DNA of 64,000 nucleotides from a virus. Positions within the stretch are counted from its first letter, which is position 1. Every line of letters starts with the position of its first letter. Shown piece by piece: positions 7,032 through 52,269 of this stretch. Made by a program: the position numbers and the translations under genes. The stretch is from positions 32,001 through 96,000 of IMG/VR virus record IMGVR_UViG_3300027151_000002, one strand, 5' to 3'. The notes under the pieces were generated by a model. The model did not search any database. It was not told the origin of the DNA and saw only the letters and a program-made list of their open reading frames with translations.

Positions 7032-7033
7032 TT

Positions 7034-11663: not shown

Positions 11664-11698
11664 AAACGTTGCTATCATAAACAAAAAGCTTTAAGACG

Positions 11699-12118
11699 AT
11701 GCCCTTTTATACCGGCCGTACTGGCAAGCTAAAGATTGGCACTAACCAAGTATCAAAAGTTCGCAACTGGACTCTTGATACTTCCGTAAACATGCTGGAT
11801 ACTACGGCTTTAGGGGATACTGCCAATACTTTCACTCCTGGCTTGTCTAGCGCCACTGGTAGCGCCACGTTGTCGTACTACAACGGCGATACCACTGATG
11901 TGACCGATCTTCTTACAAGGATTGCCAAAACTGGTGCGGTCACTGACGCTGACGTGGCTGCCCTCACTTTTGAAGTGGGACCGGATCAATACTTTACGGC
12001 TAATGCTTTCATTAACAGTGCAAGCATCACATCATCCACTGATGAGCTTACCACTGTCTCGTTTAACTTTACAATTAATGGCGCTCTAACTGCTGTTGTG
12101 CTTACTGGCACTGCTTGA
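11699..12118 (+). CDS. tail-tube-fold structural protein
   Basis: VRNWTLDTSVNMLDTTALGD and SFNFTING beta-sandwich pattern typical of tail tube proteins. Confidence 0.55.
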   Translation: MPFYTGRTGKLKIGTNQVSKVRNWTLDTSVNMLDTTALGDTANTFTPGLSSATGSATLSYYNGDTTDVTDLLTRIAKTGAVTDADVAALTFEVGPDQYFTANAFINSASITSSTDELTTVSFNFTINGALTAVVLTGTA

Positions 12119-16200: not shown

Positions 16201-16803
16201 GGTGTTCAGTGGGTGACGCCTGCAAGTGGCACAGTTCTTTCAGTGAGCGTTAATGCTCCGCTCACTGTTGTTAGCGGCACCACAACGCCAGTTATTTCCA
16301 TCCCTGACGCTACGACAAGCGTGCGTGGCACCGTTCAGCTCACTGACAGCACGAGCACTACTAGCTCTACGCTTGCTGCCACTGCCACTGCAGTAAAGAG
16401 CGCTTATGACCTGGCTAATGCAGCATTGCCCAAAGCTGGTGGGACTATTACTGGTGCCGTTACATTCGGGACGACAGGCACGCTTTTCTTTGAGGGCGCC
16501 ACTGATAACGCTTTTGAAATTCAGCTTACTGCTGCTGATGCCACGGCGGACAGGACAATCACGCTTCCCAACGTCACTGGCACTGTTGTCACTACTGGTG
16601 ATACTGGCACAGTCACCAATACAATGCTTGCTGGCAGCATTGCTGATACCAAACTTAATACTATTTCCACCGCTGGAAAAGTTAGTAATAGCGCCACCAC
16701 TGCTACCAGCGCTAACACTGCTAGCGCAATTGTCGCTCGCGATGCAAGTGGTAATTTCTCTGCTGGTACTATTGATGCCATCATTGATGAAGGCACGTTC
16801 TAA
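13255..16803 (+). CDS. long tail fibre, repeat-rich (1182 aa)
   Basis: MADQRITEL N-terminus; many VTTAKIADGA/ITQAKLASGA repeats; three KIQ..LLGR..S.G.VE.I...R.LLDDA blocks; DATTSVRGTVQL fibre motif. Confidence 0.75.
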   Translation: MADQRITELVELPQGGVASNDVLPISDVSASQTKKVQVKSLIQAGFNIADASTLDISKINQASIAKLTGSSIAPNTLTYDKIQQVSANKLLGRSSSTGNVEEIDCTVYIRTLLDDANAAGARSTLELGIVATGNTINTSLLEDLSITTGKINNLAVTAAKLASGAVETAKIFDGAVTSAKIETSGITGNNVSAGAIDTVHLAASGITLAKMAANSVGTIQLVDSGITQAKLASGAISSANIADSGITQIKLASGAVNTINLVDSGITAAKLASGAVTIEKLALASGELSGVVITASSIPSGSYTSGSIPTAAIEDNAVTFAKIQQVASGVLLGRASAGSGNVESITLTAAGRALLDDADATAQRTTLGLGSLAVKNTVGSGDYDSSSIVTGNIADSAITTAKLADSGVTTVKIVDANVTADKLASNSVTTAKIIDGGVTTAKIADGAVSYAKIQATSTSNVLLGRSSASGGTVEEISCTSAARSILDDATIADIRSTLGLGTLATQNGTFTGTSTGTNTGDQTITLSGDVTGTGTGAFAATIATSAVTSAKINDGAVTTAKIADGAVTSAKMANNSAAIVAGSTPVGSGIFIGQQWLNTGTGVEYTWTGSEWQRQSGLSTAVISGDTVYSFTTSYPDAFSASIVPSLNTQVATRFFAGPASGSADAAPTFRAITANDLPRATTAALGVAQAGTGLVTVSGIFNHANSVASGIYYKVTVDAQGHVSAGQTSLVADDIPSLPASKITTGTFGSGLIADDSILASKLANYSVSQFGEAPPVADFIGQFFFNPLEKDLYLWDGNVWNPVGISVGEIIFGGTYNASGNIIASTSSDGAAVGLTVGQPLPTPSATFNRYYVVVASGGTGTSPAPATTLQPPDILLCNGAAWTEVDVSSTYLSQSAAQVSFTPAASISASNVQAAIEEVSNECRNVNNVASGILATGYGGTSFNSYTKGDLLVGSGTTLVKQAVGTNGQVLTANSAFGGGVQWVTPASGTVLSVSVNAPLTVVSGTTTPVISIPDATTSVRGTVQLTDSTSTTSSTLAATATAVKSAYDLANAALPKAGGTITGAVTFGTTGTLFFEGATDNAFEIQLTAADATADRTITLPNVTGTVVTTGDTGTVTNTMLAGSIADTKLNTISTAGKVSNSATTATSANTASAIVARDASGNFSAGTIDAIIDEGTF

Positions 16804-23873: not shown

Positions 23874-24095
23874 ATGCTACCCCTTTCCATGGCTTTTCCT
23901 TTCGTTGCAGAAGGCGAGTGGTACAAGCAACAGACGGAGCATCTTTCGGACATTCTTGCTGAGCTACTGACAGACGATGATCCAGCAATGGCCTGTAAGG
24001 CACTGAGCGAAACCATCGCTTCTTGGGAGGACTACCACGAGAAGGAGCTTGCTAAATGGAAGCGCCTCAGGGTGCTTCTGGGCTTAAGTAATTAA
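23874..24095 (+). CDS. hypothetical protein
   Basis: 73-aa helical ORF preceded by a TATGCT box. Confidence 0.5.
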   Translation: MLPLSMAFPFVAEGEWYKQQTEHLSDILAELLTDDDPAMACKALSETIASWEDYHEKELAKWKRLRVLLGLSN

Positions 24096-25036
24096 CCTTC
24101 TTGATAGACGCTAATAAAGACAGTGCCGGTTTTGGTGAGCGGAAGGATTTTGTCGCGCAAGTCAATGTTGTGACAACGCACGCAACCATGAGTGGGGACT
24201 AATGGCTGCTTGGGAGCCCATGCTCCCGGCCAACCATTTGCGCTTCCGCCACCATGCACCATAATTCCAGCCCTACCATTGCCGGCTTCTTGATTTTCTA
24301 GTTCGACCATGTCAAAGCTGTACCAGCCGTAAGCCATGAGGGTGCGATCATAAGCAGGCTTGTCGCCCACTTTCTCATAGTCTTTGTAAATGGCACCAAT
24401 TTTATAGATCCCTGGAGGAGTGTCTGAATTTGTAATCTTCCATTCAAAATCACTATATTGTCCACGAGCAAGACAAGGGATTTCCCATAAGAGCTTCCCT
24501 TCAAATGAGAAAGCCTTCATGGTTTCCACTGCATCGTTCACAATTAAATGTGAATCGCCTTTCTTAAAGCCAAAATCTTGCGGACGTTTCTTGGGGCCAA
24601 TCATAGTAAAAGCAGTGCTCTCAGGAGCATATTCCTTCATGAGCTTAGACAGTTTTGCGGGGTAATCGGGATCCGTGGCATACGATTGCTCCTTGAGCAT
24701 ACGCGCCGCTGCATAGCGATTAGGGGCATTATTGATGCCCTTAAAGTGACGATAGTCTTTATACCATCGCGTGATTAAATATTCAATGCAAGCAGCAAGA
24801 CTAGGGAAATCAATAAAACCAGCTTTAATGGTCACCCATTGACCGTCATACCATTCTTGCGTAGAAGTGGTGGTGCCACTTCCTTTTAGGCCTAGATAAT
24901 TATGCTTTCCAGAAGTATGATTCCCAAAGCCACTTTCTAGGCAGCATTGTGCAGCTACCAGCTCTGGATATCGAGCGCCATATTTACGAGCAATTTGGAA
25001 GCATTCATCCCAGAATGCTCGATTTGACGGCCACAT
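24092..25036 (-). CDS. endolysin: GH73 glucosaminidase + YkuD L,D-transpeptidase-like domain
   Basis: AAQCCLESGFG...NYLGLK...YATDPDY (GH73); TPPGIY...GIMVHGG...THGCVR (YkuD). Confidence 0.8.
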   Translation of the reverse strand: MWPSNRAFWDECFQIARKYGARYPELVAAQCCLESGFGNHTSGKHNYLGLKGSGTTTSTQEWYDGQWVTIKAGFIDFPSLAACIEYLITRWYKDYRHFKGINNAPNRYAAARMLKEQSYATDPDYPAKLSKLMKEYAPESTAFTMIGPKKRPQDFGFKKGDSHLIVNDAVETMKAFSFEGKLLWEIPCLARGQYSDFEWKITNSDTPPGIYKIGAIYKDYEKVGDKPAYDRTLMAYGWYSFDMVELENQEAGNGRAGIMVHGGGSANGWPGAWAPKQPLVPTHGCVRCHNIDLRDKILPLTKTGTVFISVYQEG

Positions 25037-30584: not shown

Positions 30585-31538
30585 CTACTGCTTTTTTGCG
30601 ACGAAAGCTTTCATGCCATCAATAATGGCAGCAGTATCTTCAAGGCCACGCACGGCATTGATTTCTTCAGTCATTTCAGCTTTGCTAATGGCAATTTGCT
30701 CTTGCTTTGCCCATAGCGTCATCATTGCTGCGACGACGTTTCCGAAGGCTTGCCAGCTTTTGACTTCCGTGGCGCGAGCAAGTCCAATGCTTTCAAGAGC
30801 AGCTTTACCTGCAGCCATAGAAGCTTTCTCGTCGCCATAGTTCAACGGATTGGCTTTACACACTGCTGTAAGAGCTGCTTTTGCGTCGAAAGGCTCACTG
30901 GTCCCTGTATCGGCGGCGGCAGTAGGCCCTTCTTCTCCAACATCAGAAGTGCCACCAGTAGTGGCCGTCGCAGCCTTCTTGGCCGCACGAGCAGGCTTTG
31001 GGGCATCTTGCTGCAGCGCCGGTTTCGGCGCTTCTTCCTTCGGGATGTCCTCTCCGGCATAGAGACGAAGACCAAGGCCCGTGAACGTAGCGATGGCCTT
31101 GACGCTCGCACGTTGGATGTTGTCACTAATGGCACGGCCATCAAGCTGTTGAATAGAGTTGTGCTTCCTGTCCATCACGGGAAAGACAAGAGCAGGGGTG
31201 CGACGAATGCCGTCCGTGAGGTAGGGGCGAAGGATAAAAGCACCAGGCTCACCGAAGACGGGCCAGCCAAGAGTTTTCTCTTCAAAGGCCACAAAGAGCG
31301 TCGGGAAATGCTCCTTCAAATAGCGGAATGCAAATGGCCAGGACAAATAGGACAAGCCTTTGTAGTCCTTTTCAATGTGAGGGCCAATGTCTGGAGTGTC
31401 ATACGCAGCTTTAAAAGCTTCGGCGCTGATTTCCAGCGGGGTGAAGATGCCGTTGTAACGGTCGAGCATTGCTGCTTTTGCGGAGTCTTCCATGCTGGAA
31501 AAGTCGGACGGAGAATAAGTGAAGATAGTGTGGTTCAT
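30585..31538 (-). CDS. DUF1071 (Sak3-like) single-strand annealing recombinase
   Basis: GLSYLSW..A, PVMD.KHN, IQR..VKAIA..GLGL.LYAGED. Confidence 0.8.
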   Translation of the reverse strand: MNHTIFTYSPSDFSSMEDSAKAAMLDRYNGIFTPLEISAEAFKAAYDTPDIGPHIEKDYKGLSYLSWPFAFRYLKEHFPTLFVAFEEKTLGWPVFGEPGAFILRPYLTDGIRRTPALVFPVMDRKHNSIQQLDGRAISDNIQRASVKAIATFTGLGLRLYAGEDIPKEEAPKPALQQDAPKPARAAKKAATATTGGTSDVGEEGPTAAADTGTSEPFDAKAALTAVCKANPLNYGDEKASMAAGKAALESIGLARATEVKSWQAFGNVVAAMMTLWAKQEQIAISKAEMTEEINAVRGLEDTAAIIDGMKAFVAKKQ

Positions 31539-32243: not shown

Positions 32244-34259
32244 ATGGCTTTTTCCATTCTTGAACACCTCGCCAAACTGGAGCCGAGCGACCATGCAGGC
32301 AAATACATCTGCCCTGCGTGCGGTGGCAACGACCTGTCCGTGAACGAAGGGAACGGAGCATACAACTGCTTCAATGACGACAGTCCGAAGCATCGTGCAG
32401 AAATTCGTAACATTCTTGCTCCTCTAGAGCGCTGGGAACGTCCCATGCGCGAAGCAAAACGCTATTCGTTCCCCTATCAAAATCGCAATCGCGAAGACGT
32501 GATAGTCGTCACGCGAGATGACACTTCTGGCAAGAAAAGCATTTCGCAAGACTATCCCACTGCCAATAATGTAAGTGGCAAGCGTTCTGAAATTGTCAAA
32601 CAACTTCGCAAGAACGTTCTTCCCTATCGCTATTACGATGCCATTGAAGCATCAGCAGCTTCAGGCCTGCCCATCTTCATTGTTGAAGGCGAACTGACTG
32701 CTGATAGGCTTTGGGAAATCGGCCTGCCTTCTAGCACGTTTCTTGGTGGCAGCGGACAATATCGTGCGAACGGTGACTATTCGCAACTGTTTCGCGGGCA
32801 GAAAGTAGTTCTATGTCCTGATCGTGATGAGCCTGGCGTGGCTCTCATGAAGGAGGTGGCTGCAGACAATCCCAATGCGCAATGGTGCTACGCGGATCCA
32901 AGCAGCTTTGAATGGGACAATCTGCCTCAGAAAGGAGGCTATGACTTAGCCGACTGGCTTGATGATGGTGCAGATCAAGATGCCATTCTTTCATCCATCG
33001 TCTCAAAGGATAGGCACGAAGGGAAAGACGGGCTCCCTTCTTACGAGGAGATCATTGGCACGTTTGAGCGCATGGTTGGTCTCTACAACAACGATGCCCG
33101 CATTGCCTATGAAGCTCGCCAATGGATGGATGCTCATGGCGTCAAGCTGAATTCACAAGAAATCGACAAGCTGCTTTCTGAAGCACGCGGTCGCGTACAT
33201 GGCAAAGAGGAAATGGAAATCCTCGATGCAAAAGCAATTGCACAGTCTGAAGACTCAAGGAAGTGGACTATTGCTGGCATTCTTCCTGAAAGTAGCGTGA
33301 TGCTGCTAGCTGCAGCTCCCGGAAGTGGCAAGAGCACAATCGTCTACAACTGGGCTTTGCACGTTGCCACTGGTAAAGATTGGAGCAATCGCCGTTGCAA
33401 GAAAGGGAAAGTGCTCATCATTCAATGCGACGAGCCAGTTGTTGATGCTGCAGAAAAGCTTCAAATTATTGGCTACGACGATGATGCACTAGGCAATGGT
33501 CAGATTGATTTCATTGATCGCTGGCGCTTTAGTAACATCCCCCAGCTCCTTTCTTACGTGCAGCGCCACCAGCCACAGCTCATCATGATTGATAGTCTCA
33601 CTTCATGCTTGGCTGGCATGGATGTAGATCTCATCCGTTCTGATGCTGGTAATTGCATTTACGAACTGCGCGACATTGCCAATCAATATGGTTGCTCCAT
33701 TGTCATCCTTCACCACTTGAATAAAAGTGGTGGTATTCGTGATAGCTCCAGCTTTGAAGCCAACGTTAGTGAAGTGGTGAAACTCTATCGCACTGACAAT
33801 AATCCTGATTCAACGCAGTTCATGTTTGAATGGACCAAGAGCCGAAGTGGCTTAGCTGGTAAGCATTTCATGCAGCGTGATCCTGCCACTTATGGCTGGT
33901 ATTACAAAGGGCCTGCAGTGGGTGGCAATGAGAGCATGGATAATCTCGTCAATATGATCAACTCTCGCAAGCACGAGCGTTTCGATAGGAAGGCTGCTGC
34001 TAATGCTTCTGGCTCATGGGACACGGTAAGCGTGGGACGTTTGCTGGAAGTGGCACGTCGTCAAGGCTTGATTGACACCAGCTTCATTGTTGGTCCCAAT
34101 GGTGAACGCACCAGGATGTACCAAAGCTGGGCTTATGAAGCTCCAGATGTTGATTTTGAGCCTGTTCCCGCTCAGGAAGAAGCTCCCCAAGAAGAGCCTG
34201 TTCCCATTGTTCCCAATGAAAGTCTTCCCGAAGGGGAAGACGATGATGAGTGGTTCTGA
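32244..34259 (+). CDS. DNA primase-helicase (Zn finger + TOPRIM + RecA-like AAA_25)
   Basis: CPACGG...YNCF; IVEGE; CPDRDEPG; AAPGSGKST; IMIDSL; ILHHLNK. Confidence 0.9.
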   Translation: MAFSILEHLAKLEPSDHAGKYICPACGGNDLSVNEGNGAYNCFNDDSPKHRAEIRNILAPLERWERPMREAKRYSFPYQNRNREDVIVVTRDDTSGKKSISQDYPTANNVSGKRSEIVKQLRKNVLPYRYYDAIEASAASGLPIFIVEGELTADRLWEIGLPSSTFLGGSGQYRANGDYSQLFRGQKVVLCPDRDEPGVALMKEVAADNPNAQWCYADPSSFEWDNLPQKGGYDLADWLDDGADQDAILSSIVSKDRHEGKDGLPSYEEIIGTFERMVGLYNNDARIAYEARQWMDAHGVKLNSQEIDKLLSEARGRVHGKEEMEILDAKAIAQSEDSRKWTIAGILPESSVMLLAAAPGSGKSTIVYNWALHVATGKDWSNRRCKKGKVLIIQCDEPVVDAAEKLQIIGYDDDALGNGQIDFIDRWRFSNIPQLLSYVQRHQPQLIMIDSLTSCLAGMDVDLIRSDAGNCIYELRDIANQYGCSIVILHHLNKSGGIRDSSSFEANVSEVVKLYRTDNNPDSTQFMFEWTKSRSGLAGKHFMQRDPATYGWYYKGPAVGGNESMDNLVNMINSRKHERFDRKAAANASGSWDTVSVGRLLEVARRQGLIDTSFIVGPNGERTRMYQSWAYEAPDVDFEPVPAQEEAPQEEPVPIVPNESLPEGEDDDEWF

Positions 34260-38101: not shown

Positions 38102-38277
38102 TCCATTGTTGGATTGGGATTATGACAAACGAAGCGTGATGCAACTTGCTACGGCAAAGCTTGAACGTAGGCTTCAATACTGGCGAGAGAAAGAGCAGGA
38201 GGAAATCCTGAAGCGATATCGTCTCGTCACTTCCATCTAGCCAAATTGCCAATTTCTACACACTACGAGGTTCAACA

Positions 38278-38487
38278 ATGACTCAAGAACATCCCATCAC
38301 CCCAATGAGCGACTTCCACCCCGCACCATTCGATGACTTTTCCACCGAACTGCGCGATCCGTGGCCCGTTGTGGAGCGGCTACGCATGGCACTGCGCGAG
38401 GCCGAGCGCTACTGCCTCGGCGCTGAAAACACCACCGGGCAGTGCATCACATCCCTTCTTGAAATTCTTCCTGACGAAGATGACTGA
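38278..38487 (+). CDS. small hypothetical protein in the junction cassette
   Basis: 69-aa ORF; GAGG RBS. Confidence 0.5.
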   Translation: MTQEHPITPMSDFHPAPFDDFSTELRDPWPVVERLRMALREAERYCLGAENTTGQCITSLLEILPDEDD

Positions 38488-38740
38488 CTTCCGAGCGCTG
38501 TGCGCCCGCATGGCTGACGAGCTGGACCATTACCGGCAGCTTTTGATGGATGACCGACGCGAAGCACATGCGTTGGCGACAGAAGCCCGCGCCGCACTTG
38601 CTCAGCCCAAGCCGCCGAGCTTGAGGGAGCAGGCGCTAGATGCCCTCACCCTTCTATGCAAAGGGCCGGACGCAACAGCTTTTGTGACGTGTAGAGACAC
38701 CATCCGCCGTGCTCTCGAACAGCTTCCCGACAACGAGTAG
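38480..38740 (+). CDS. small hypothetical protein in the junction cassette
   Basis: MTDFRALCA...ARAALAQPKPPSLREQAL...IRRALEQLPD; ATG overlaps the previous ORF end. Confidence 0.55.
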   Translation: MTDFRALCARMADELDHYRQLLMDDRREAHALATEARAALAQPKPPSLREQALDALTLLCKGPDATAFVTCRDTIRRALEQLPDNE

Positions 38741-38765
38741 TCACCTTCACTAATTACGCCAACCC

Positions 38766-38939
38766 ATGCCCACCAAGCTCAAAGCCAGCACCCTCCCCGT
38801 CAACCTCACCGCCTACCAGCGCGCCATCGACGCCGCCGCTCGCACCGTTTCCGGTATCCCGCGCTGCCAGCTAGAGGCCATCGTCGCCGCTGCCATCACC
38901 GCCATTGGCAAACCAACAGATGACAACCAAGCGGCCTGA
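38766..38939 (+). CDS. small hypothetical protein (57 aa, not in the ORF track)
   Basis: MPTKLKASTLPVNLTAYQRAIDAAAR...; first ORF of the C-rich segment B. Confidence 0.5.
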   Translation: MPTKLKASTLPVNLTAYQRAIDAAARTVSGIPRCQLEAIVAAAITAIGKPTDDNQAA

Positions 38940-39096
38940 AAACCAACCCTGTCGCCTTGTCTCCCTCTGCGGTCAGTTCCTCACCGTCAATGGCACCTTC
39001 TCCGCAGACCCTGCCAGCGCCCTCACAGCCGAACGCTGGTGGCTTGAACGAGAACAACGACGCATCAACACCCTCTCCATCATCATCCGCGCCTAG
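38920..39096 (+). CDS. small hypothetical protein
   Basis: MTTKRPENQPCRLVSLCGQFL... Confidence 0.4.
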   Translation: MTTKRPENQPCRLVSLCGQFLTVNGTFSADPASALTAERWWLEREQRRINTLSIIIRA

Positions 39097-39520
39097 TGCC
39101 ATCACCTTCAACGTGATCGGCATGGAACCAGCAACCCAAGGCTCTAAAAGCCATGTCGGTAACGGGATCATGCGCGAAACCAATCAGCGCCTCCGTCCCT
39201 GGCGCTCTCTCGTCACCGACGCAGCCCTAGCAACCAATACCCCACTCATCAATCACCCCGTCTCCATCTCAATAACCTTTCGCTTCCTACGCCCCAAAGG
39301 CCACTACAACAAATCCGGCCTATCCCCTAAAGCACCAGCCCACCTAACCTCTCGCCTAAAGGGCGACATCGACAAACTTTCCCGTGCCGTGCTTGATGCC
39401 CTCACTGGCTCACTTCTTCACGACGATTCTCAAGTGGTTCAACTGGCTGCCCACAAGCGCTACTGCACCGCAGAAGAAAAACCTGGTGCCCTCATCACCA
39501 TCATCCCGCTGGCAACCTAA
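38957..39520 (+). CDS. rusA: RusA-like Holliday junction resolvase
   Basis: PATQGSK, F.F.RPK.H, DIDKL.RAVLDALT...DDSQVV...KRY; true start probably downstream (~39040). Confidence 0.8.
   Translation: MSPSAVSSSPSMAPSPQTLPAPSQPNAGGLNENNDASTPSPSSSAPSAITFNVIGMEPATQGSKSHVGNGIMRETNQRLRPWRSLVTDAALATNTPLINHPVSISITFRFLRPKGHYNKSGLSPKAPAHLTSRLKGDIDKLSRAVLDALTGSLLHDDSQVVQLAAHKRYCTAEEKPGALITIIPLAT
39511..39520 (+). promoter_or_regulatory. segment B promoter box GGCAACCTAA
   Basis: 19 nt upstream of ATG 39540. Confidence 0.6.
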
Positions 39521-39863: not shown

Positions 39864-41075
39864 ATGGCAAATACAATCTCAGATCTCAAGTTTGACCATA
39901 AGAACGCCCGCAAGCGTACTGATAGTTCCGCACGCCTCATTCAGGAATCCCTGCAGCGCTACGGCGCAGCACGCTCCATCGTCATCGACGAAGAGAACCG
40001 CATCCTTGCGGGCAACGGCACCATCGAAGGTGCCAAGGCACTAGGGCTAACGAAGCTCAAGGTCGTTGAAGCCAGCGGTGACGAGATCATCGCCGTGCGC
40101 CGTAGCGGCCTCTCCGAAGATGAGAAGGTCGGCCTCGCTATCGCTGACAACCGCGCTGCTGAACTCTCGGACTGGGATGCCGAGATGCTGCAACAGCTCA
40201 GCGAAGAGCATGACCTAGAGCCTTGGTTTGAAGCAGAAGACCTAGACGAGCTGCTTAAGGAAGCCGAGCAACTCGATCCAGTCGAAGGCAACACCGACCC
40301 CGATGAGGTGCCTGAGGCACCCGAAGATCCGATCACCAAGCCAGGTGATCTCTGGATTCTCGGCAATCATCGCCTCCTCTGCGGTGACAGCACCAACCCG
40401 CAGCACGTTGAACGCCTGATGGATCAGCAGGAGGCGGACATGCTCTACTGCGATCCTCCTTATGGGATGAACCTCAACACCGACTACAGCCAGATCAAAG
40501 GCTCCGCAAAAAGCCCTAACGCAAAGGGCTACAAATGGAAAGAAGTAATAGGAGATGACAAAGATTTTGATCCATCGGCTCTAATAGCTTTGTTCCAAGA
40601 TGTGCCAGAGCAATTTTGGTGGGGAGCTGATTATTACTTTGAATGCCTGCCTCGCGGTGGCAGCTTGATTGTTTGGCAAAAACGGGACAAGGCTGATGCT
40701 GAGATGATCGGTAACGATTTTGAGATCTGCTGGTCTAAGAAGCGCCATAAGAAAGCAACATTTTGGAAGCGCTGGGTTGGTTTTGACTCTGTAGAACGCG
40801 GAGAGAAGCGCGTCCACCCAACGCAGAAGCCCGTTGACTTGCATTCATGGGTCTTCGATCAATGGGGAAAACAAGGTGACGTTGTAGTAGACCTCTTTGG
40901 AGGCTCAGGCTCCACCCTTATCGCCTGCGAAAAGACCAACCGCCACTGCCGCATAATGGAACTCGACCCCGCCTACTGCGATGTGATCGTCAAGCGCTGG
41001 GAAGACTTCACCGGTAACACCGCCATCTGCCAACCCTCCGCTACCCACTTTGCGGAGCAACAGGAGGCAGCCTGA
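39864..41075 (+). CDS. ParB-like N-terminal domain + N4C/N6A DNA methyltransferase
   Basis: NAR...SL.RYG...AGNG...IADNR; GDLW.LG.HRLLCGDS; DPPYG; HPTQKP; DLFGGSGSTLIACE. Confidence 0.9.
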   Translation: MANTISDLKFDHKNARKRTDSSARLIQESLQRYGAARSIVIDEENRILAGNGTIEGAKALGLTKLKVVEASGDEIIAVRRSGLSEDEKVGLAIADNRAAELSDWDAEMLQQLSEEHDLEPWFEAEDLDELLKEAEQLDPVEGNTDPDEVPEAPEDPITKPGDLWILGNHRLLCGDSTNPQHVERLMDQQEADMLYCDPPYGMNLNTDYSQIKGSAKSPNAKGYKWKEVIGDDKDFDPSALIALFQDVPEQFWWGADYYFECLPRGGSLIVWQKRDKADAEMIGNDFEICWSKKRHKKATFWKRWVGFDSVERGEKRVHPTQKPVDLHSWVFDQWGKQGDVVVDLFGGSGSTLIACEKTNRHCRIMELDPAYCDVIVKRWEDFTGNTAICQPSATHFAEQQEAA

Positions 41076-41398
41076 TGGCAGCCCGCGATTCCTACCAAGG
41101 TCAAGCTATCGAGCGGGCACGCCGCTTCGCTCGCATAATCGCCAATGGCGGCCGTAGGTCGGACTGCCTGCGCTATGCCGAAGAAAACTGGGGGGTCAAG
41201 GCAAGCTCCTGCGATCAATACCTCCGCATGGCCCGCGATCAGCTCAAGGCTGACTGGGACATCGAACGGCCCCAGATGATCGCTGACCTGCTCTCTCAGT
41301 GCTCCACCCTTCAGATGGAAGCCCGCCGCGCTGGGCAGTACCACATCGCTCTAGGTGCCATTAACACCGCAGCCAAGCTCGCTCAGCTCTGCTCGTGA
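41075..41398 (+). CDS. terminase small subunit
   Basis: HTH-like 107-aa ORF coupled directly upstream of TerL. Confidence 0.7.
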   Translation: MAARDSYQGQAIERARRFARIIANGGRRSDCLRYAEENWGVKASSCDQYLRMARDQLKADWDIERPQMIADLLSQCSTLQMEARRAGQYHIALGAINTAAKLAQLCS

Positions 41399-42744
41399 GC
41401 ATCCTTGCTGCTGCACCAACAGGCAACGTCCTTCAGCAGATCGGTCATGGCAACGGCGACCTTGATGTAGCCAACCTCCTCGCTCGCATCACAGCGGACC
41501 TGCACCCCGGTCAGCTCGCCTTTGTCGAAGACCAGACAACCGAGATCCTTGGCATTTCTGCCGGATACGGCGCTGGTAAAACCCGTGCACTAGCCAGCAA
41601 GGCCGTTCACCTCGCCGCCAGCAATCAGGGCTTCATCGGCATCGTCATGGAGCCCACCGGCCCATTGATCCGTGACATCTGGCAGAACGACTTCGACGAC
41701 TTCCTAGAGGCCTACGACATCCCCTACACGTTCCGCGCTTCACCGCTCCCGGAATACGTGCTGCACCTGCCCGGCGGCGACACCAAGATCCTCTGCCGCA
41801 GCTTTGAAAACTGGCAGCGCTGCATCGGCATCAACGCCGCATGGTGCCTCTGCGATGAAATTGATACTGTCCCACCCTCCACGGCCAACAAGGCCTTCCC
41901 CAAGATCCTTGGCCGCCTTCGTGCCGGCAACGTTCGGCAGTTCGGTGCAGCCTCCACACCTGAAGGCTTCCGCTGGATGTGGCAAACCTTCGCCTCAGAA
42001 GAGACCAAGGAACGCGCTGATCGCAAGCTGATCAAGATGCGCACGGCAGACAACCCCTATCTGCCGCCTGACTTCATTGAGCGTCTACAGGCCAACTACG
42101 ACCCGAACCTGCTGCAGGCCTACCTCAACGGTGAGTTTGTCTCGCTCACCACCGGCCAGGTGTACGACCGCTTCAACCGTGAGCTGCACGTTCAGACGGT
42201 TGACTGGGATCCAGAAGAGCCGATCCTGCTCGGCATTGACTTCAATATTGGCAACATGAGTGGCGTCTTAGCCGTGCGCCGTGGCCGTGAGCTGCACGTC
42301 TTTGATGAGATTACCGGTGCCCACGACACCGATGCCCTCGCTCAAGAGGCTCGCCGCCGTTACGGCAAAGCACGCATCCTTGGCTACCCCGATGCTTCCG
42401 GTGCCAACCGCAGCACCAATAGCTCCCGCAGCGACATCGCCATCCTGGAGAGCTACGACATCAGCAACATGGCACCCTCAGCCAACCCACCGGTGCGCGA
42501 CAGGATCGCAGCGGTGCAAGCGTTGCTGGAGAACGGCATGGCCGAGCGCCGTCTGTTCGTCGATAAGCGCTGCAAGAAGCTGATCGAGTGCCTAGAGCTG
42601 CAGAGCTACACAGAGCAAGGTGATCCAGACAAGAGCGCCGGCTATGACCACATGAATGATGCGCTCGGCTACATCGTCCACCGCTGCTTTGAAGTGGGCC
42701 GTGGCCACAGCGGTAAAGCAGTGCGCAATCTGCGCATCTACTGA
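41395..42744 (+). CDS. terL: terminase large subunit
   Basis: Walker A GYGAGKT, Walker B LCDEID, ASTPEG, RNase H-like GIDFN...DH.NDA. Confidence 0.95.
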   Translation: MSILAAAPTGNVLQQIGHGNGDLDVANLLARITADLHPGQLAFVEDQTTEILGISAGYGAGKTRALASKAVHLAASNQGFIGIVMEPTGPLIRDIWQNDFDDFLEAYDIPYTFRASPLPEYVLHLPGGDTKILCRSFENWQRCIGINAAWCLCDEIDTVPPSTANKAFPKILGRLRAGNVRQFGAASTPEGFRWMWQTFASEETKERADRKLIKMRTADNPYLPPDFIERLQANYDPNLLQAYLNGEFVSLTTGQVYDRFNRELHVQTVDWDPEEPILLGIDFNIGNMSGVLAVRRGRELHVFDEITGAHDTDALAQEARRRYGKARILGYPDASGANRSTNSSRSDIAILESYDISNMAPSANPPVRDRIAAVQALLENGMAERRLFVDKRCKKLIECLELQSYTEQGDPDKSAGYDHMNDALGYIVHRCFEVGRGHSGKAVRNLRIY

Positions 42745-42767: not shown

Positions 42768-44237
42768 GTGCACTTCAATCTCGCTGCCACTGAACTCAAG
42801 CCCGTCCTGTCCATTCAGGATCTCGGCGTTCACGATCCCGGCATCGCCTGGCAGCGGATGCAGCCCCGCTGGGAACTCATCGAAGAGCTGATCGGTGGCA
42901 CGCTGCAGCTGCAAGCCGCAGGCCGTCGCTACCTGCCGCAGGAGCCGAAGGAATCCGACGAGAGCTATCTCGCCCGCCTGCGCCGCAGCGTCTGCCCGCC
43001 GTACTACCAGCGCTTAGAGCAGATGCTGGCCGGCATGATCAGCCGCAAGCCAGTCCGTCTGGACAACGTGCCTGATCAGGTGCAAGAGCACATGATGGAC
43101 GTCGATCTGCAGGGCAACGATCTCAACGTCTACCTGCACAGCCTGGCCCGCACCTGTCTGCGCTACGGGCACGTCGGCGTGCTGGTGGACTTCCCTCGCG
43201 GTGATGAAGGCGACGACACACCGGTTACTGACTTCAACCGTCCCTACTGGGTGAGCTACAGCCCACGGGACATCCTTGGCTGGCGAACTGACGTAGTGGG
43301 CGGCACGCAAAAGCTCACGCAGCTGCGCCTGCTAGAGCGCGTCGTCGTGCCTTACTCGGAATACGGCGAAGAGGTGGTGGAGCAGGTGCGGGTGCTGACG
43401 CCCGGTGCGTTCCAGCTGTTCCGCAAGCAGGCCTCCCGCTCCCGTGATTGGGAACTGGTCAGCGAAGGCCAGACCACGCTCGACGAGATCCCCTTTGCGG
43501 TTGCCTACTCCAACCGCGTGGGCATCCTGGAATCCACCCCGCCGCTGGAAGAGGTCGCACACCTCAACCTGCAGAGCTACCGCGTCAGCTCAGACCTCAG
43601 CAATCAGCTGCACATCGCTGCTGTGCCTCGCTTCCATCTGTACGGCGTGCCAGCCGAACTAGATGAGATCACTGCTGGCCCTGACTCCGCCATGGCTCTA
43701 CCCGTGGATTCACGGGCTGAGTTTGTGGAGCCGCAAGGCACCAGCTACGGCTTCCAGTTCCAGCAGCTGGATCGCATTGAACGCCAGATCAATCAACTTG
43801 GCCTGGCCGCTGTGATGGGTCAAAACATGACCAACCAAGCGGCAGAAGCCAAGGCCATTGACCGCAGCCAAGGTGATGCTGCCCTGATGACCGTGGCGCT
43901 TGGCCTGCAGGATCTGATCGACAACTGCCTGCGCTTCCACAGTGCGTTCCTCGGTCTGCCCAACAGCGGCAGCAGCATGGTCAACAACGACTTCGTGGCC
44001 CGCACGCTGGAGCCTGGTCATGTAGCCGAGCTGATCAAGCTGCGCCTCAACGGTGACATCACGCAGGAAACCCTGCTGATCCAGCTAGCCGATGGTGAGT
44101 GGCTCTACGACGACTTCAATGTCGATCAGGAGATTGAAGCCACCGCAGCGCAACAGCAATCACGGCTTGATGCACAAGCTGCGCAGCTTGATGCAAATCT
44201 GCAACAACTTCCGGGGCAACCTAATCAGCAACCCTGA
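42768..44237 (+). CDS. portal protein (DUF4055-like)
   Basis: YLPQEP.E..Y.ARL, D.QGN.L, YG.VGVLVD, PPL..VA.LN; position after TerL. Confidence 0.85.
   Translation: MHFNLAATELKPVLSIQDLGVHDPGIAWQRMQPRWELIEELIGGTLQLQAAGRRYLPQEPKESDESYLARLRRSVCPPYYQRLEQMLAGMISRKPVRLDNVPDQVQEHMMDVDLQGNDLNVYLHSLARTCLRYGHVGVLVDFPRGDEGDDTPVTDFNRPYWVSYSPRDILGWRTDVVGGTQKLTQLRLLERVVVPYSEYGEEVVEQVRVLTPGAFQLFRKQASRSRDWELVSEGQTTLDEIPFAVAYSNRVGILESTPPLEEVAHLNLQSYRVSSDLSNQLHIAAVPRFHLYGVPAELDEITAGPDSAMALPVDSRAEFVEPQGTSYGFQFQQLDRIERQINQLGLAAVMGQNMTNQAAEAKAIDRSQGDAALMTVALGLQDLIDNCLRFHSAFLGLPNSGSSMVNNDFVARTLEPGHVAELIKLRLNGDITQETLLIQLADGEWLYDDFNVDQEIEATAAQQQSRLDAQAAQLDANLQQLPGQPNQQP
44215..44224 (+). promoter_or_regulatory. segment B promoter box GGCAACCTAA
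   Basis: 27 nt upstream of the scaffold ATG. Confidence 0.6.
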
Positions 44238-45030: not shown

Positions 45031-46086
45031 ATGGCGGCAACAGTCCGCTCGGATATTGTCATCCCGGAGATTTTTACTCCGTATCTGGAAGAGGCCACCA
45101 CTCTTCGCAATGCCTTTATCGCTTCCGGTGTTGTGCAGCCCCTTGAGGCTCTCAACGCTGTGGCCGATGGCGGCGACTACGTGAATGTGCCCTTTTTCGA
45201 TGCCAACCTCAGCGGCGACGCTGAAGTGCTGGCTGATAACGCCAGTCTGACCCCTGGCAACATCACCGCCGACAAGCAGCGCGGTGTGGTGCTGCACCGT
45301 GGTCGCGCTTGGGGTGTGCGTGAGCTGGCCAAGCTGGCTGCTGGTGCTGACCCCATGGCCGCCATCGGCAACAAGGTCGCTGCCTACATCGCTCACCAAC
45401 AGCAGAAGGATCTGCTGGCCACCCTCGCTGGTGTGTTTGGTGCAGTCGGTAGCAGCAACAGCTCGGCATCCTTTGTCGATCTGACCTTTGATGCCGGCGG
45501 TTCTGGTGAGACCCCTCTCACCCCTCGTCACGTCGCCAAGGCTCGTGCACTGCTGGGTGATCAAGGCGACAAGCTGAGCGCTATCTGCATGCACTCGGCT
45601 GTCTACTACGACCTCGTAGAGCGTCGTGCCATTGACTACGTGACCGCCTCTGAAGCTCGCGCTACCGCTGCTGCTTCTAACGCTGCTACCCCCGATGTGT
45701 TCGCTGGCTCTGTGGCTGGCGCATATACCGCTGACGGCAGCGTGCCCTTTTACATGGGCATGCGCGTGATCGTCTCCGACGATGTGCAGACCAGCGGCTC
45801 TGGCTCCTCGAAGAAATATGCAACTTATTTCTTCACTCCGGGGGCAGTCGGATCGGGCGAAGCCCAGGGCATCAAAACCGAAGTGGACCGCGACATCCTC
45901 GCGCTGGCCGACTACATGGCCGTGTCCTGGCACAACGTGTTCCACCCCATTGGTGCTCAGTACCAGACCGCCGGCGGTGCTAACCCCTCACAGGCAACTC
46001 TGGCCACTGTTGCCAACTGGACCAAGGTGTACGAGACCAAGAACATTGGCATCGTGCGCGGCACTGTCACCAGCAACTTCGACTGA
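45031..46086 (+). CDS. major capsid protein
   Basis: DIVIPEIF.PY, SGVV, RGRAW, G.DPM.AI, ALLGD, MHSAVY, GMRVIVSD, E.DRDIL. Confidence 0.9.
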   Translation: MAATVRSDIVIPEIFTPYLEEATTLRNAFIASGVVQPLEALNAVADGGDYVNVPFFDANLSGDAEVLADNASLTPGNITADKQRGVVLHRGRAWGVRELAKLAAGADPMAAIGNKVAAYIAHQQQKDLLATLAGVFGAVGSSNSSASFVDLTFDAGGSGETPLTPRHVAKARALLGDQGDKLSAICMHSAVYYDLVERRAIDYVTASEARATAAASNAATPDVFAGSVAGAYTADGSVPFYMGMRVIVSDDVQTSGSGSSKKYATYFFTPGAVGSGEAQGIKTEVDRDILALADYMAVSWHNVFHPIGAQYQTAGGANPSQATLATVANWTKVYETKNIGIVRGTVTSNFD

Positions 46087-47430: not shown

Positions 47431-47988
47431 ATGACCGTCACTGTCGTTGCTACTGCTGGCGCTGCTGATGCCAACAGCTATCTGACAGTGGCTGCTGCAG
47501 ATGATTTGGCCAACCTGTACCTCGGCACTCTCAACTGGTCATCGGCCAGCACCGATAACAAAGGCCGTGCGCTGATCATGGCCACGCGCTACCTCGATGA
47601 GCTGAGCTACATCGGTGAGCGTGCTGCCAGCACACAAGCGCTGCTCTGGCCCCGCACGGACGCCGAGTGTGGCGACTGGTCTTACAGCAGCACCGAGATC
47701 CCCAAGCCGATCAAGCAGGCCACCTTTGACCTGGCCGAATACCTGCTCGGTGATGGCAATGCCCTGTCAACTGGCGGTGCCGGCAGTAGCGAACTGATCA
47801 GCGGCATCCCCAACGCCAACCTCAAGCGTGCCCAGATTGATGTGATCAGCGTGGAGTTCAATTCCACCCCACAGGCCGAAAGCAAGAACGCTTTGAATGT
47901 GCTTCCGCACTTGTCTAAAGTGTTGGGATGCTTATGCACCAGCACCGCAGCATCAGCCTTCGGGTCGCGCCTCGTCCTGCGAAGTTAG
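47431..47988 (+). CDS. head-tail adaptor (DnaT-like family)
   Basis: ANSYLTVA.AD, RAL..AT.YLD, QAL.WPR, IP..IK.A..LA. Confidence 0.75.
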   Translation: MTVTVVATAGAADANSYLTVAAADDLANLYLGTLNWSSASTDNKGRALIMATRYLDELSYIGERAASTQALLWPRTDAECGDWSYSSTEIPKPIKQATFDLAEYLLGDGNALSTGGAGSSELISGIPNANLKRAQIDVISVEFNSTPQAESKNALNVLPHLSKVLGCLCTSTAASAFGSRLVLRS

Positions 47989-47993
47989 ACAAG

Positions 47994-48572
47994 ATGCGCG
48001 TTGCTGAAGGCCAGCTTGATTTCTTCAGCACTCCGGCCGCTGCACCGGAGAAAAAGCGCAGCGAAGGACACCTTGCTAAACCACTGACCCGCGAGGAACA
48101 GCGGCGGTTTGGGCGCATGTATGCCGAAAACATCGGCCTGATCAAGATGTTCGGCGGGAAGCTGTGCCGCAAGTACAGCCACTGCATGGCCAAGGAGGAT
48201 ATCTTCTCCTGCTGTGACATTGCCTTCTTGAAGGCGTGCCGTGCTTGGGATCCCGAGAAGGGAAAGCTGAGCACGATCTTCTGGAGCTTTGCCCAAGGTG
48301 AAGTGCTGCACTTTTTGCGGGGCCACAACTGGACGATCAAGGCCACGCACAAGGTCAGGCTGCTGGGCAACAACGCCAGGCGGCTGATGGCGTTGGGCTG
48401 GCAGCCGGCAGCGATCTGCAAGGAGCTGAGCTGCAGCAAGCAAGACCTCAAGGAAGCACTGCTAGCGACAGCAGGCGTGGCCCATGACGTGAAGGGCTTT
48501 GACCTACATGTATGCCCGCGCATGACGCCGTGGGAGGTACTTGAGGCCGAAGAGGAGGCTGCTGCTAGTTAG
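47994..48572 (+). CDS. phage sigma factor (sigma70 regions 2-3, SigF/FliA-like, no region 4)
   Basis: ENIGLI...EDI...AFLKA...WDPEKGKLST...GEVLHFLR...IK; region-3-like AICKELSCS..DL. Confidence 0.8.
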   Translation: MRVAEGQLDFFSTPAAAPEKKRSEGHLAKPLTREEQRRFGRMYAENIGLIKMFGGKLCRKYSHCMAKEDIFSCCDIAFLKACRAWDPEKGKLSTIFWSFAQGEVLHFLRGHNWTIKATHKVRLLGNNARRLMALGWQPAAICKELSCSKQDLKEALLATAGVAHDVKGFDLHVCPRMTPWEVLEAEEEAAAS

Positions 48573-48606: not shown

Positions 48607-49086
48607 ATGGCCACCGGTGCCTTTTTTAACTCGCTGGGGTATCGGTTCTATGTGAAGGCCGGCACCACCGCCAGCACCAAGCCAACCGCTAGCACCGGCA
48701 TGACTGAGGTGCTGTCCCTGACCAACGCTGGTATCCAGGGCACCAGCCAGACGCAGGAAGTGCAGGACTACGGCAGCACGCTGGGCTTTACCGCTTCGCT
48801 GGTGACCACGCAGGCTTACACCATCCCCTGCGAGATGAACCTCAACCTGAATGACGCCGGTTATGCCGTCCTCAAAAATGCTGCCCTAAATGCTGCAACC
48901 GGCACCACTGTTGAGTGGTATCGTGAATCGCCCGAGATGAGTGGCACCGGCAGCCCTGAATACCACTCCGGCGTCGCCTTCGTGACCGACTTCTCGGAGT
49001 CGATTGCTGCAGGCAATGTTGCAACTGTCAGTTTTACCTTGTCGGGCTACGGCTCGTATTCCTGGTCTGCCGAGACCAACGCCTGA
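48607..49086 (+). CDS. tail tube (major tail) protein
   Basis: 159 aa; G.AFVTDFSES..AGNVATVSFTL.GYG. Confidence 0.75.
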   Translation: MATGAFFNSLGYRFYVKAGTTASTKPTASTGMTEVLSLTNAGIQGTSQTQEVQDYGSTLGFTASLVTTQAYTIPCEMNLNLNDAGYAVLKNAALNAATGTTVEWYRESPEMSGTGSPEYHSGVAFVTDFSESIAAGNVATVSFTLSGYGSYSWSAETNA

Positions 49087-49147: not shown

Positions 49148-49597
49148 CTACAACCCGCCGATGCCGTCTAGGCGTCGCCACTGCTCAGCAAAGAAGCGAT
49201 CTAGCGGTTGCTTCTCTAGGGCTGGCTTGATCCAGTTGCGGCCTGGTACCAGTGTGCCCTTGCTGGTGGTGTAGCCCGTCAAGATGAGGCCGGCATACAT
49301 GAATCCGTCTTTGCTCTTGGGTTCCCATGTGAAGCGCAGCTGCGTTGCACTGGGGCGATCACGACGTTGAGAGCGCAGCAGACCGCCGAGGTCCACGATG
49401 TCGCGTGGGCTGCTGACGGTTTGCCCATTGCGGCGTTTGGTGGCACGCGGCCAACCGAACTGCGGCGTTTGGATCTCTTCCTTGAGCTGATCACCCAAGA
49501 CCTTCCCGTAGGTGGTCAGGATCTGCGGCACGCGCAGCTTGAGCTGATTGGCATTCCAGCCGGTCAGCTTGAAGTTGGCCTTGACCTGAACTGGCAT
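49148..49597 (-). CDS. neck/tail completion protein (HK97 gp10-like)
   Basis: PRDIVDLG.L.RS, YA..I..G, PGRNWIKPAL. Confidence 0.65.
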   Translation of the reverse strand: MPVQVKANFKLTGWNANQLKLRVPQILTTYGKVLGDQLKEEIQTPQFGWPRATKRRNGQTVSSPRDIVDLGGLLRSQRRDRPSATQLRFTWEPKSKDGFMYAGLILTGYTTSKGTLVPGRNWIKPALEKQPLDRFFAEQWRRLDGIGGL

Positions 49598-49992
49598 CAG
49601 CCCTGCACGTAGCGGGCCAGCCGGATCTTGTCGCCAATGACCTGCTGCACGGTGCTGCCAATCAGACCGGTGGTGCCGTAGGGGTAGCGGCTGTTGATCA
49701 CTTCGCAGTCGATGCTGCCTTGACCGGCGAAGTTCAGAGTGCCGACCACTCCGGGCTTGATGCGTGCATCCAGTGCTTGCGGGCTGACCGCATAGCCCTC
49801 GTAGGTCTCAACTTCAGTGTCAACGCCAGGAAAGTCCGAGGCCCTGGTGCTGCCTTGACGCAGGTACAAGCTGACCGTGACTGTTTCCGTGGCCGGCACA
49901 ACGTTGCCGGTGACGGGATCAGTGACTGTGCCAACGGTTGGAACCGTGAAGATTGCAGTGGCGTTGGCCAGTGCAGCGAGAGCGCTAGTCAT
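49597..49992 (-). CDS. head-closure-like protein
   Basis: DPVTGN motif, beta-rich 131 aa; coupled to the gp10-like gene. Confidence 0.5.
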   Translation of the reverse strand: MTSALAALANATAIFTVPTVGTVTDPVTGNVVPATETVTVSLYLRQGSTRASDFPGVDTEVETYEGYAVSPQALDARIKPGVVGTLNFAGQGSIDCEVINSRYPYGTTGLIGSTVQQVIGDKIRLARYVQG

Positions 49993-49995
49993 GGC

Positions 49996-50005
49996 CTAGG
50001 TTCCC
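49996..50005 (-). promoter_or_regulatory. segment B promoter box GGGAACCTAG (minus strand)
   Basis: 3 nt before the minus-strand ATG at 49992. Confidence 0.65.
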
Positions 50006-50043: not shown

Positions 50044-52269
50044 GTGGCGGAGAGTCTGGGCTCAGCTGTCTTAACAGTCAGCGTTGATGATGCCCAGCTC
50101 AAAGCAGGCCTGCAAGCTGCAGAACGTCAAGCAACAGCGACTGGCCGCGCAGTAGAAAAAGCCTTCACACCGTCCGGCAAGTCGGTGCAGACTGCTGCCA
50201 ACGGTCTGCAGTATTTCATTGATACGCAGGGTCGTGCCCGTGATACGGCTGGTAAGTTTCTGACCGTTGCACAGCAGCAGGCGGCTGGGATTGAAAACGT
50301 CGGCAAAAGTGCAAAGCGGGCAAGCTTTGACATCAGCGGCCTAGGTGATGCGTTAGCTGCGATTGGTATTGGTGCTGCCGCTGCTGGGTTTCTGCGTGGC
50401 TCCGTTAATGCTGCTGTAGAACTTGAAAGTATTAGCAAGAAACTCAGCAATACGCTCGGTGAGCAAGGTGCTGGGCAGGCACTCAGTTTTACCAAGGGCT
50501 TGGCTGATCAGCTGGGCCTCAGCTTCAAAACGCTGGCCGGTAGTTTTGGCAGCTTTACAGCCGCAGCCTCGGCGGCCAATGTTCCGCTTGACCAGCAGAA
50601 AGAGCTGTTCGCTGCTGTCGCTAAGGCGGCGCAGGCTCTTGGTCTGAGCAACGATGAAATCAATGGCTCACTGCTGGCCCTGCAGCAGGTTGCAGCCAAA
50701 GGCACCGTGCAGATGGAAGAACTGCGCGGTCAGCTTGGTGAGCGCTTGCCGATTGCTTTTGGTGCTACTGCCAAAGGGCTTGGCATCACACAGCAAGAGC
50801 TAATTAAGCTCGTGGAGTCTGGAAGGCTCACAGCATCTGAGTTTTTCCCTGCTCTGACCAAAGGCCTTAATGAGCTGACAGCAGGTGCTGGTGGTTCGGC
50901 AACTGCAGCTCAGAACTTCCAAAAGCTGGCTAATGCTTTTGACGAGCTGCAGACATCCTTTGGAAAGACTTTGCTGCCAACCATTACCGAGCAGGTCAAG
51001 AACCTGACCGGTGCGTTGAGTGGGTTGCAGATTGGAATTGATGCCAACAAGCTTGGCCTTGGTGGCCTCTTTGGCAACCTTGGCCTAGTTCCAGATGCAG
51101 GCATTGAGGCCGTTGCATCGGTGCGGCAACTTGCTGAGCAGTATCAGCTGACCGCTGAGCAGGCACGGGCTCTGTTCTTTGATGCGGCCAAGCTTGAAGG
51201 TCTAACACTTACCAGCACAGGCTTTCTCCCCGACGCTAAAGGTTTGGAGCGAGCGCTAGAGCGCTTGCCGCAACTAGCCGAAGAATTCAGGGCCAAAAAT
51301 AAGGATGCAGTCACAGAGCTGAAAGCACAAGCGGCAGAGGCTGCTCGTGTTGCTGCAGAGCAGAAAAAAGGACGTGACAGCGTTGAAAACATTCAAGAAG
51401 CCATTAAGGCTTTGTCTTCAGAGCAGAAGGCATTGGCGGTTGATAGTCAGCGCTATGCAGACATCTCGCAAGAGATCGTCAACAAGCAAACGCGACTCAA
51501 TGAGCTGAAGAAGACCGAGGGCCAGCGTTTTGCCGAAAGTATTGCTGCTGCAAATCAGCTTCGTAGTATTCAAGAGGAGATCGCCATCCAACAGCAGCGC
51601 GGCAGCTTGACTGGTACTGGCATTGGCGCGTTACAAGCTGTCAAAGCGCTGGAGGATGCCAAACGAGCTGAGCAAGAAGCCCAGGCTGCTCTTGGTGCTG
51701 ATCCTGGTAACTCCAGCCTCTTCAACGCCTCGCAGCAGGCAGCAGCCAATGTTCAGCTGGCTGCAGCTAAGACCAAGGCCGACCTTGAAGACGCTTTTAG
51801 GTCCGCACAAGATGCGGTGCGCAGCATCAGCCGCAGCATTGAGGATTCCGTCACTGCCCTGAACGCCGCACGCGGTAGCGCTGAGGGCATCAATAAGTTC
51901 ATCAATCCCCAGCAAGCCCGTGAGCGGCAACAGGCTGCCAACGTGACCTTGCTGCGTGAAGCAAGCGATCTGGCTAAGCAGCTTGGCGTCACTGCCACCT
52001 TCCGGGGTGGGCTGACGCAGCGCAACAGCCAGCTCAACGAGTTCATCACAGCTGCACGGCAAGAGCTGCGTGCTCCTGAGGACATTGCACGCTCCAACTT
52101 GGATTTAGCGCGTGCTCAGAACGATCTCGCCACCGTCAACGAGTCCCTAGTCAATGTGACTACTCAGCTGGCGGAAGCGACCGCAAACCTAGCGAGTAAG
52201 GACTGGAACGTTTACGTGAACGCTCCGGCCACTGCTGATCTGCCCCGTGGCGTGGAGGTTTACCAATGA
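50044..52269 (+). CDS. tail tape measure protein (741 aa)
   Basis: MAESLGSAVL.V.VD; ALQQVAAKGTVQMEELRGQLGERLP; Ala/Gln-rich coiled coil. Confidence 0.9.
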   Translation: MAESLGSAVLTVSVDDAQLKAGLQAAERQATATGRAVEKAFTPSGKSVQTAANGLQYFIDTQGRARDTAGKFLTVAQQQAAGIENVGKSAKRASFDISGLGDALAAIGIGAAAAGFLRGSVNAAVELESISKKLSNTLGEQGAGQALSFTKGLADQLGLSFKTLAGSFGSFTAAASAANVPLDQQKELFAAVAKAAQALGLSNDEINGSLLALQQVAAKGTVQMEELRGQLGERLPIAFGATAKGLGITQQELIKLVESGRLTASEFFPALTKGLNELTAGAGGSATAAQNFQKLANAFDELQTSFGKTLLPTITEQVKNLTGALSGLQIGIDANKLGLGGLFGNLGLVPDAGIEAVASVRQLAEQYQLTAEQARALFFDAAKLEGLTLTSTGFLPDAKGLERALERLPQLAEEFRAKNKDAVTELKAQAAEAARVAAEQKKGRDSVENIQEAIKALSSEQKALAVDSQRYADISQEIVNKQTRLNELKKTEGQRFAESIAAANQLRSIQEEIAIQQQRGSLTGTGIGALQAVKALEDAKRAEQEAQAALGADPGNSSLFNASQQAAANVQLAAAKTKADLEDAFRSAQDAVRSISRSIEDSVTALNAARGSAEGINKFINPQQARERQQAANVTLLREASDLAKQLGVTATFRGGLTQRNSQLNEFITAARQELRAPEDIARSNLDLARAQNDLATVNESLVNVTTQLAEATANLASKDWNVYVNAPATADLPRGVEVYQ

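Follow-up and report, generated by a model that had tools for sequence, protein, structure and literature searches.

The window (the whole stretch of 64,000 nt that was analysed) covers bases 32001-96000 of the 106,734-bp record IMGVR_UViG_3300027151_000002, which IMG/VR classes as linear and 100% complete. Its left part belongs to one phage, called phage A below, with tail and fibre genes inside the window and genes for TerL, portal, head protease, major head protein and ribonucleotide reductase upstream of it. The right part belongs to a second phage (phage B), whose genes, assigned by PHROG matches, also include those of tail proteins; past the window follow genes for a sigma factor, a dCTP deaminase, an Erf-like protein and a large serine recombinase. 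Two small ORFs, called ORF1 and ORF2, stand between the two gene sets (Table 1).

Table 1. Features of the window and the evidence behind them (window positions unless marked as contig positions)
Feature	Position	Strand	Basis or remark
Phage A packaging genes	contig 14778-16644		Outside window
Phage A part	1-38240		PHROG matches, GC ~47%, collinear with the 73,391-bp contig G004, TerL 76% identical to S-CBS4
Phage A tape measure (1809 aa)	1207-6636		PHROG
Phage A endolysin	24092-25036	minus	PHROG
Phage A Sak-like annealing protein	30585-31538	minus	PHROG
Phage A primase/helicase	32244-34259		PHROG
Phage A small early ORFs	up to 38240		
Left part of the GC-rich module of phage A ('X')	38241-38497	plus	GC 0.56-0.60, B-like Markov score, contiguous with A-end/A-start in L003 and L004
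ORF1 (69 aa)	38278-38487	plus	Overlaps ORF2 by 8 bases
ORF2 as printed (86 aa)	38480-38740	plus	Translations
Exact 127-mer, same as contig 1-127	38498-38624	plus	Base-by-base comparison; crossover zone
Phage B part	38625-64000		PHROG matches, TerL 70-73% identical to S-H1/KBS-S-2A, collinear with G006 from 38772
Phage B small ORF	38766-38939		
Phage B RusA	38957-39520		PHROG
Phage B ParB-methyltransferase	39864-41075		PHROG
Phage B TerL	41395-42744		PHROG
Phage B portal	42768-44237		PHROG
Phage B major head protein	45031-46086		PHROG
Phage B tail-tube gene	48607-49086		
Phage B tape measure (741 aa)	50044-52269		PHROG
Phage B endolysin	from 63327, past window end		PHROG

Each half of the contig has exactly one set of genes for TerL, portal, major head protein, tape measure and endolysin. 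An earlier note on this DNA had described the window as holding two sets of virion functions. Its two tape measures are present, and of its two lysis cassettes an endolysin gene was found on either side; the small-ORF cassette that it had placed at 38278-38740 was recovered as two overlapping ORFs of 69 and 86 aa. The pair of TerS candidates that it saw in the window fails for phage A, whose packaging genes lie outside, and the pair of frameshifting chaperones fails for phage B. Tail chaperone genes are normally located after the tail-tube gene and before the tape measure. In phage B this slot (49148-49992) is filled by two genes that are read from the minus strand (149 and 131 aa) according to codon phase: counted in the two minus-strand frames, 54 of 91 and 62 of 109 substitutions relative to the related contig G006 fall on third codon positions. 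Among the ORFs preceding both tape measures, none had a PHROG match to a chaperone family.

GC content is ~0.44-0.53 in positions 1-38000 of the window (about 47%) and 0.52-0.65 beyond (about 59%). At 200-bp resolution it goes from 0.45 to 0.60 between 38100 and 38300, with the switch itself located between 38200 and 38300. Over the whole contig, GC is ~0.44-0.52 in most of bases 1-70240, one island of up to 0.73 excepted, and 0.55-0.63 from base 70241 to the end. We also built third-order Markov models of both halves and scored their log-likelihood ratio in 200-bp segments. The mean score was +13.1 (sd 7.0) for A-type segments and -13.1 (sd 7.8) for B-type segments; the sign reverses from the segment starting at 38101 (+12.4) to the one starting at 38301 (-7.7). 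The composition shift that the earlier note had seen across 38250-38770 is thus borne out, GC and Markov score both placing the step at ~38240. The GGNAAC-style motif claimed for the right side was found there as well: the pattern GG[ACG]AA[CT][CT]T[AT][AG] has 12 tight copies in 39511-62891, the A side having only 5 looser matches, and its total of 17 occurrences compares with 7.2 expected.

When the contig was searched with the junction region, a second copy of this region was found at the very start of the contig. Base-by-base comparison showed that contig bases 1-127 are letter-identical to contig bases 70498-70624 (window 38498-38624). The first mismatch between the copies falls at base 128 (window 38625); 12 further identical bases follow before the copies diverge, and in all 140 bp are alike at 99%. 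Self-comparison of the whole contig revealed no other internal repeat and no overlap of the contig end with the contig start. The JGI metagenome workflow uses metaSPAdes with k = 33, 55, 77, 99 and 127, and we presume that this was the assembler for the present record. The length of the repeat is the top k of this workflow, and its copies sit at the contig terminus and at the point where A switches to B, as is expected of a chimera arising at a repeat of the assembler's k length. MEGAHIT (k = 141), considered on account of the 140-bp similar stretch, was rejected as a candidate: no 140- or 141-mer survives the mismatch at base 128, and the exact run is 127.

Since the 127 bases at the contig start recur at window 38498-38624, contig bases 1-70497 form one closed circle, which is therefore the 70,497-bp genome of an S-CBS4-like Synechococcus siphovirus. 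If the contig had ended at base 70624, it would be a 'DTR' genome with 70,497 unique bases. One relative of phage A, G004 (IMGVR_UViG_3300047564_005433; 73,391 bp), is listed in IMG/VR with direct terminal repeats. Because its terminal repeat is exactly 127 bp long, this 'DTR' is an assembly overlap that marks circular closure and not evidence of physical terminal repeats.

The closure of phage A is seen in other assemblies too. When public metagenome contigs were scanned with a 46-mer taken from the repeat, two were found to match, L003 (Ga0255085_1012692) and L004 (Ga0255096_1013230). The former matches contig bases 69308-70637 at 99.9% and 1-854 at 100%, the two matches overlapping by the 140-bp repeat; the latter matches 70111-70637 at 99.8% and 1-1610 at 98.7%. 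In both, the order is A-end, GC-rich cassette, 127-mer, A-start, and this closed A form is the only one that the scan recovered. It follows that the cassette at 38241-38497 genuinely belongs to phage A and that, past the repeat, phage A runs into its own start and not into phage B. Two longer relatives of phage A (G001 and G004, 73-74 kb) agree: the homologue of the A-end (to contig base 70264) lies ~1-1.3 kb from the homologue of contig bases 696-948, with no phage B DNA between A-end and A-start. G004 is collinear with phage A all the way round, 51.2 kb of the 70.5-kb circle being aligned, and none of its matches falls in the B part.

The relatives listed with TerL 93-99% identical to that of phage A reach 70.3-78.8 kb, none being longer, and two of them have DTRs. 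The phage A side had no megablast match among 50,697 phage records and was placed by protein searches. Its TerL is 76% identical, over 100% of the length, to that of Synechococcus phage S-CBS4 (NC_016766, 69,420 bp, host Synechococcus sp. CB0101), so that phage A has both the hallmark gene and the genome size of an S-CBS4-like phage; its programme, too, is of the siphovirus type, and its tape measure is long. It differs from S-CBS4 in carrying a private GC-rich cassette at 38241-38637.

The right part of the contig is, judging by gene content and collinearity, about 36 kb of a temperate siphovirus of the KBS-S-2A/S-H1 type. Collinearity with G006 (40,962 bp), which matches the B part only, gives a genome size of about 37.5-41 kb. 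Positions 11540-11952 of G006 correspond to the last 400 bases of the contig, and G006 from 13519 onward corresponds to the window from 38772 onward. This layout implies that the B circle closes across the contig end, with ~1.5 kb missing just upstream of the repeat. Contigs with TerL 68-97% identical to that of phage B reach 40.5-46.9 kb at most among the relatives listed. As on the A side, megablast gave no match among 50,697 phage records. The TerL of phage B is 70-73% identical over 95-96% of its length to those of S-H1 (39,158 bp) and KBS-S-2A (NC_020854, 40,658 bp), phages of the same genome size class, and 63% identical to those of 38-kb Prochlorococcus phages (P-HS2/MED4-184). The genes of phage B include one for a large serine recombinase of 475 aa (phrog_95, integrase; locus L007:7414-8841, i.e. 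contig 102414-103841, minus strand), whereas KBS-S-2A is reported to have no integration elements (PMC3751600).

The cassette between the two gene sets was compared in both genomes. ORF2 starts with an ATG at 38480, and the C-terminal part printed in the window is the phage B version; phage A itself has an ORF2 of 83 aa, with its end at contig base 234. The two versions agree fully in codons 1-48, have K or R at codon 49 and cease to be similar at codon 53. On the A circle, B-like composition is confined to the interval from contig base 70241 to ~140, roughly 400 bp with A-like DNA on either side, and it ends exactly where the similarity of A and B ends. In the A relatives G001-G005 DNA matches stop at ~38236-38304, the cassette being absent at the DNA level; the slot holds other sequence, with ~50% protein similarity to the C-terminal part of ORF2 only. 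The B relatives G006-G008 have no ORF2 homologue at the corresponding position; a distant B-type contig, L187, has a gene of the ORF2 family just upstream of RusA and TerL. Families of both ORFs are common in IMG/VR, in contigs of many sizes and backbones, and the ORF2 homologues (loci L183-L262) often align with residues 1-45 only or with residues 42-84 only. At the sequence level this pattern suggests a recombination hot spot in ORF2 near codons 45-53, where the copies of A and B diverge. Many phage contigs have ORF2 residues 1-45 at 90-98% identity and unrelated C-termini. With respect to function, all matches of ORF1 and ORF2 in PHROGs, Pfam and the ESM Atlas were below useful thresholds.

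Taken together, these data indicate that the 106.7-kb contig is very probably a mis-join of phages A and B that arose when short reads were assembled on a de Bruijn graph. The true crossover zone is 38498-38624. Chimeric assembly through a module shared by both phages was one of the options named in the earlier note, and it gained support from the 127-mer within the ORF at 38480-38740, from the closed A circle and from relatives of either phage that stand alone. The two genomes close separately, phage A in L003, L004 and G004 and phage B by comparison with G006; among the 160 relatives listed none has both, the longest being 78.8 kb (A type) and 46.9 kb (B type).

The course of events may have been as follows. 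In the sampled community phages A and B would each carry a copy of ORF2, the first halves of which are identical over at least 127 bases. In phage A the copy would be part of a GC-rich module of ~400 bp (ORF1 and the first half of ORF2) in a variable small-gene slot, probably gained recently from a GC-rich phage such as phage B, if the transfer went in this direction. Phage B's own upstream sequence would end in the same 127-mer. In a graph with k = 127 this 127-mer would be a single vertex with two exits. The position of the first mismatch, exactly at base 128, makes it the last 127-mer that A and B share; identity of A and B may extend upstream of it, at most to about 38241. The path of the contig would start at this vertex, go once round phage A, come back to the vertex at 38498-38624 and leave by the exit to phage B. 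Exact-pattern scans of IMG/VR for the core of the 127-mer and for the B-specific junction gave no match; neither these scans nor the scan of public metagenome contigs produced an independent link from the 127-mer to phage B or a contig with phage B's upstream side of the 127-mer. That phage B owns the 127-mer we infer from the present contig.

Contigs of this kind have precedents. The authors of CheckV judged that IMG/VR contigs far above the expected length are probably artefacts of assembly (PMC8116208), and the present record, too, is longer than any relative. The CheckV cases consist of one genome repeated, which k-mer frequency reveals; here two genomes are joined, and k-mer frequency stays near 1. 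De Bruijn chimeras between genomes provide the closer likeness, with an exact repeat of length k at the terminus and at the switch, and with each side coherent when taken alone.

The same layout could in principle be produced in a cell. In a real cointegrate, A and B would have co-infected one Synechococcus cell and undergone homologous exchange in ORF2, giving a molecule of ~108 kb in which A lies inside B with one copy of the repeat on either side. The observed order of repeat, A, repeat and B and the topology of the graph are those of a Campbell-type cointegrate, and a graph with one shared vertex is expected from a true cointegrate as well. The two lineages also occur together in at least eight IMG samples, and their shared DNA is 99-100% identical, as opposed to ~90% or less in other carriers of the module, which argues for real contact between them. 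However, 108 kb would not fit the capsids, given that the genomes of relatives are 70-79 kb or 39-47 kb long. Phage A was found in two other assemblies, where its closed form stands alone, and the exact match of 127 bases, with the contig starting on its first base, points to an assembler and not to biology. Of the two novel junctions that a cointegrate has, only one is at hand: searches with the repeat found no contig leading from B's upstream side into the A start. We thus consider a cointegrate very unlikely, as it could be packaged by neither phage, only closed A is seen elsewhere, and the length and position of the repeat are those of an assembler. If it were true, an intermediate step of phage mosaicism would have been caught directly.

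A mis-join could also have occurred elsewhere, namely at 38240 or at another point around 38741-38771, in which case a third phage would have supplied 38241-38771. The limits of DNA similarity invite such a reading: similarity to A relatives ends at ~38240-38300 and similarity to B relatives begins at 38772, so that the cassette is private to this contig among the relatives listed. Nevertheless, L003 and L004 join the A-end to 38241-38637 at 99.8-99.9%, which makes the border at 38240 real within phage A, the contig has no second repeat, and the gene of the ORF2 family located upstream of RusA/TerL in L187 shows that ORF2 suits the layout of phage B. This version is very unlikely. A blunt mis-join at 38240 was rejected because L003 and L004 span this position. 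The join of the two genomes, for which the earlier note had given 38240-38770, falls inside 38498-38624, and what the composition marks at 38240 is a mosaic border within phage A, real but ordinary.

Two further options of the earlier note found no support. Tandem prophages, A and B lying side by side in a host chromosome, could be suspected from the large serine recombinase of phage B, but no host gene was seen in the examined ORFs of the 106.7-kb contig and there is no host flank; on the left the contig ends in the repeat, not in an attachment site. In other assemblies phage A forms its own closed circle, and one of its relatives is DTR-bounded. Comparison with G006, in turn, closes the B circle across the contig end and so puts the join in the small-gene region of phage B and not at an attachment site next to the integrase. 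A search with the TerL of phage B against 185,579 species genomes yielded just four small MAG fragments and no prophage context. We regard tandem prophages as extremely unlikely. A genuine recombinant phage with two complete virion programmes, for which contiguity in the record is the sole argument, has a next to negligible chance: every point against the cointegrate counts here as well, the halves differ in composition and regulatory motifs and are unblended, and 0 of the 160 relatives listed exceed 79 kb.

If the contig is a mis-join, the 'double phage' with two virion programmes has no biological existence and nothing should be built on such a genome. The entry stands in a public catalogue as a linear genome of 106.7 kb that is '100% complete', and the usual check for k-mer repeats would miss the mis-join. 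Splitting the record at the 127-mer would yield a complete S-CBS4-like genome of 70,497 bp and a nearly complete genome of a temperate KBS-S-2A-like phage (about 36 kb out of 38-41 kb).

The module common to both phages is a case of ordinary mosaicism, if a recent one. Its DNA is 99-100% identical between A and B and at most ~90% identical in other carriers, a difference that speaks for recent exchange and not for conservation. An identical module of 127 to ~400 bp would thus likely reflect very recent gene exchange between S-CBS4-like and KBS-S-2A-like phages, and hence a shared host. Two unrelated, co-occurring lineages of cyanosiphoviruses with a near-identical small-gene module probably have a common host. 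Among the contigs listed, phages of the A and B types occur together in the IMG samples 3300035703, 3300035670, 3300047564, 3300043446, 3300010354, 3300044701, 3300032293 and 3300034073 (at least eight samples), which fits a shared habitat or host.

The nin region of lambdoid phages is a mosaic region of small genes upstream of a RusA-type resolvase. The locus studied here resembles regions of the nin type in its short ORFs, which point the same way and overlap at their stop and start codons, in module borders that fall at or inside gene boundaries, in the presence of the cassette in unrelated phage backbones and in the position of RusA immediately downstream in phage B. It differs in that the hosts are cyanobacteria and that ORF1 and ORF2 have neither an assigned function nor a Pfam family.

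Some observations concern other parts of the contig. Phage A has a 2.3-kb island of 67-73% GC at L005:5500-7700 (contig 5500-7700) in a genome of otherwise ~47% GC. Most of the island is a 578-aa ORF (L005:5903-7639), the sole match of which is phrog_1617, a family of unassigned function; the island looks like a second, larger foreign insert in phage A. In phage B, a GGGAACCTAG box is located at 49996-50005 on the minus strand, directly upstream of the two minus-strand genes described above. Phage B also has two sigma-factor-like genes, one inside the head-tail module (47928-48572, plus strand) and the other at L007:2283-3197 (minus strand).
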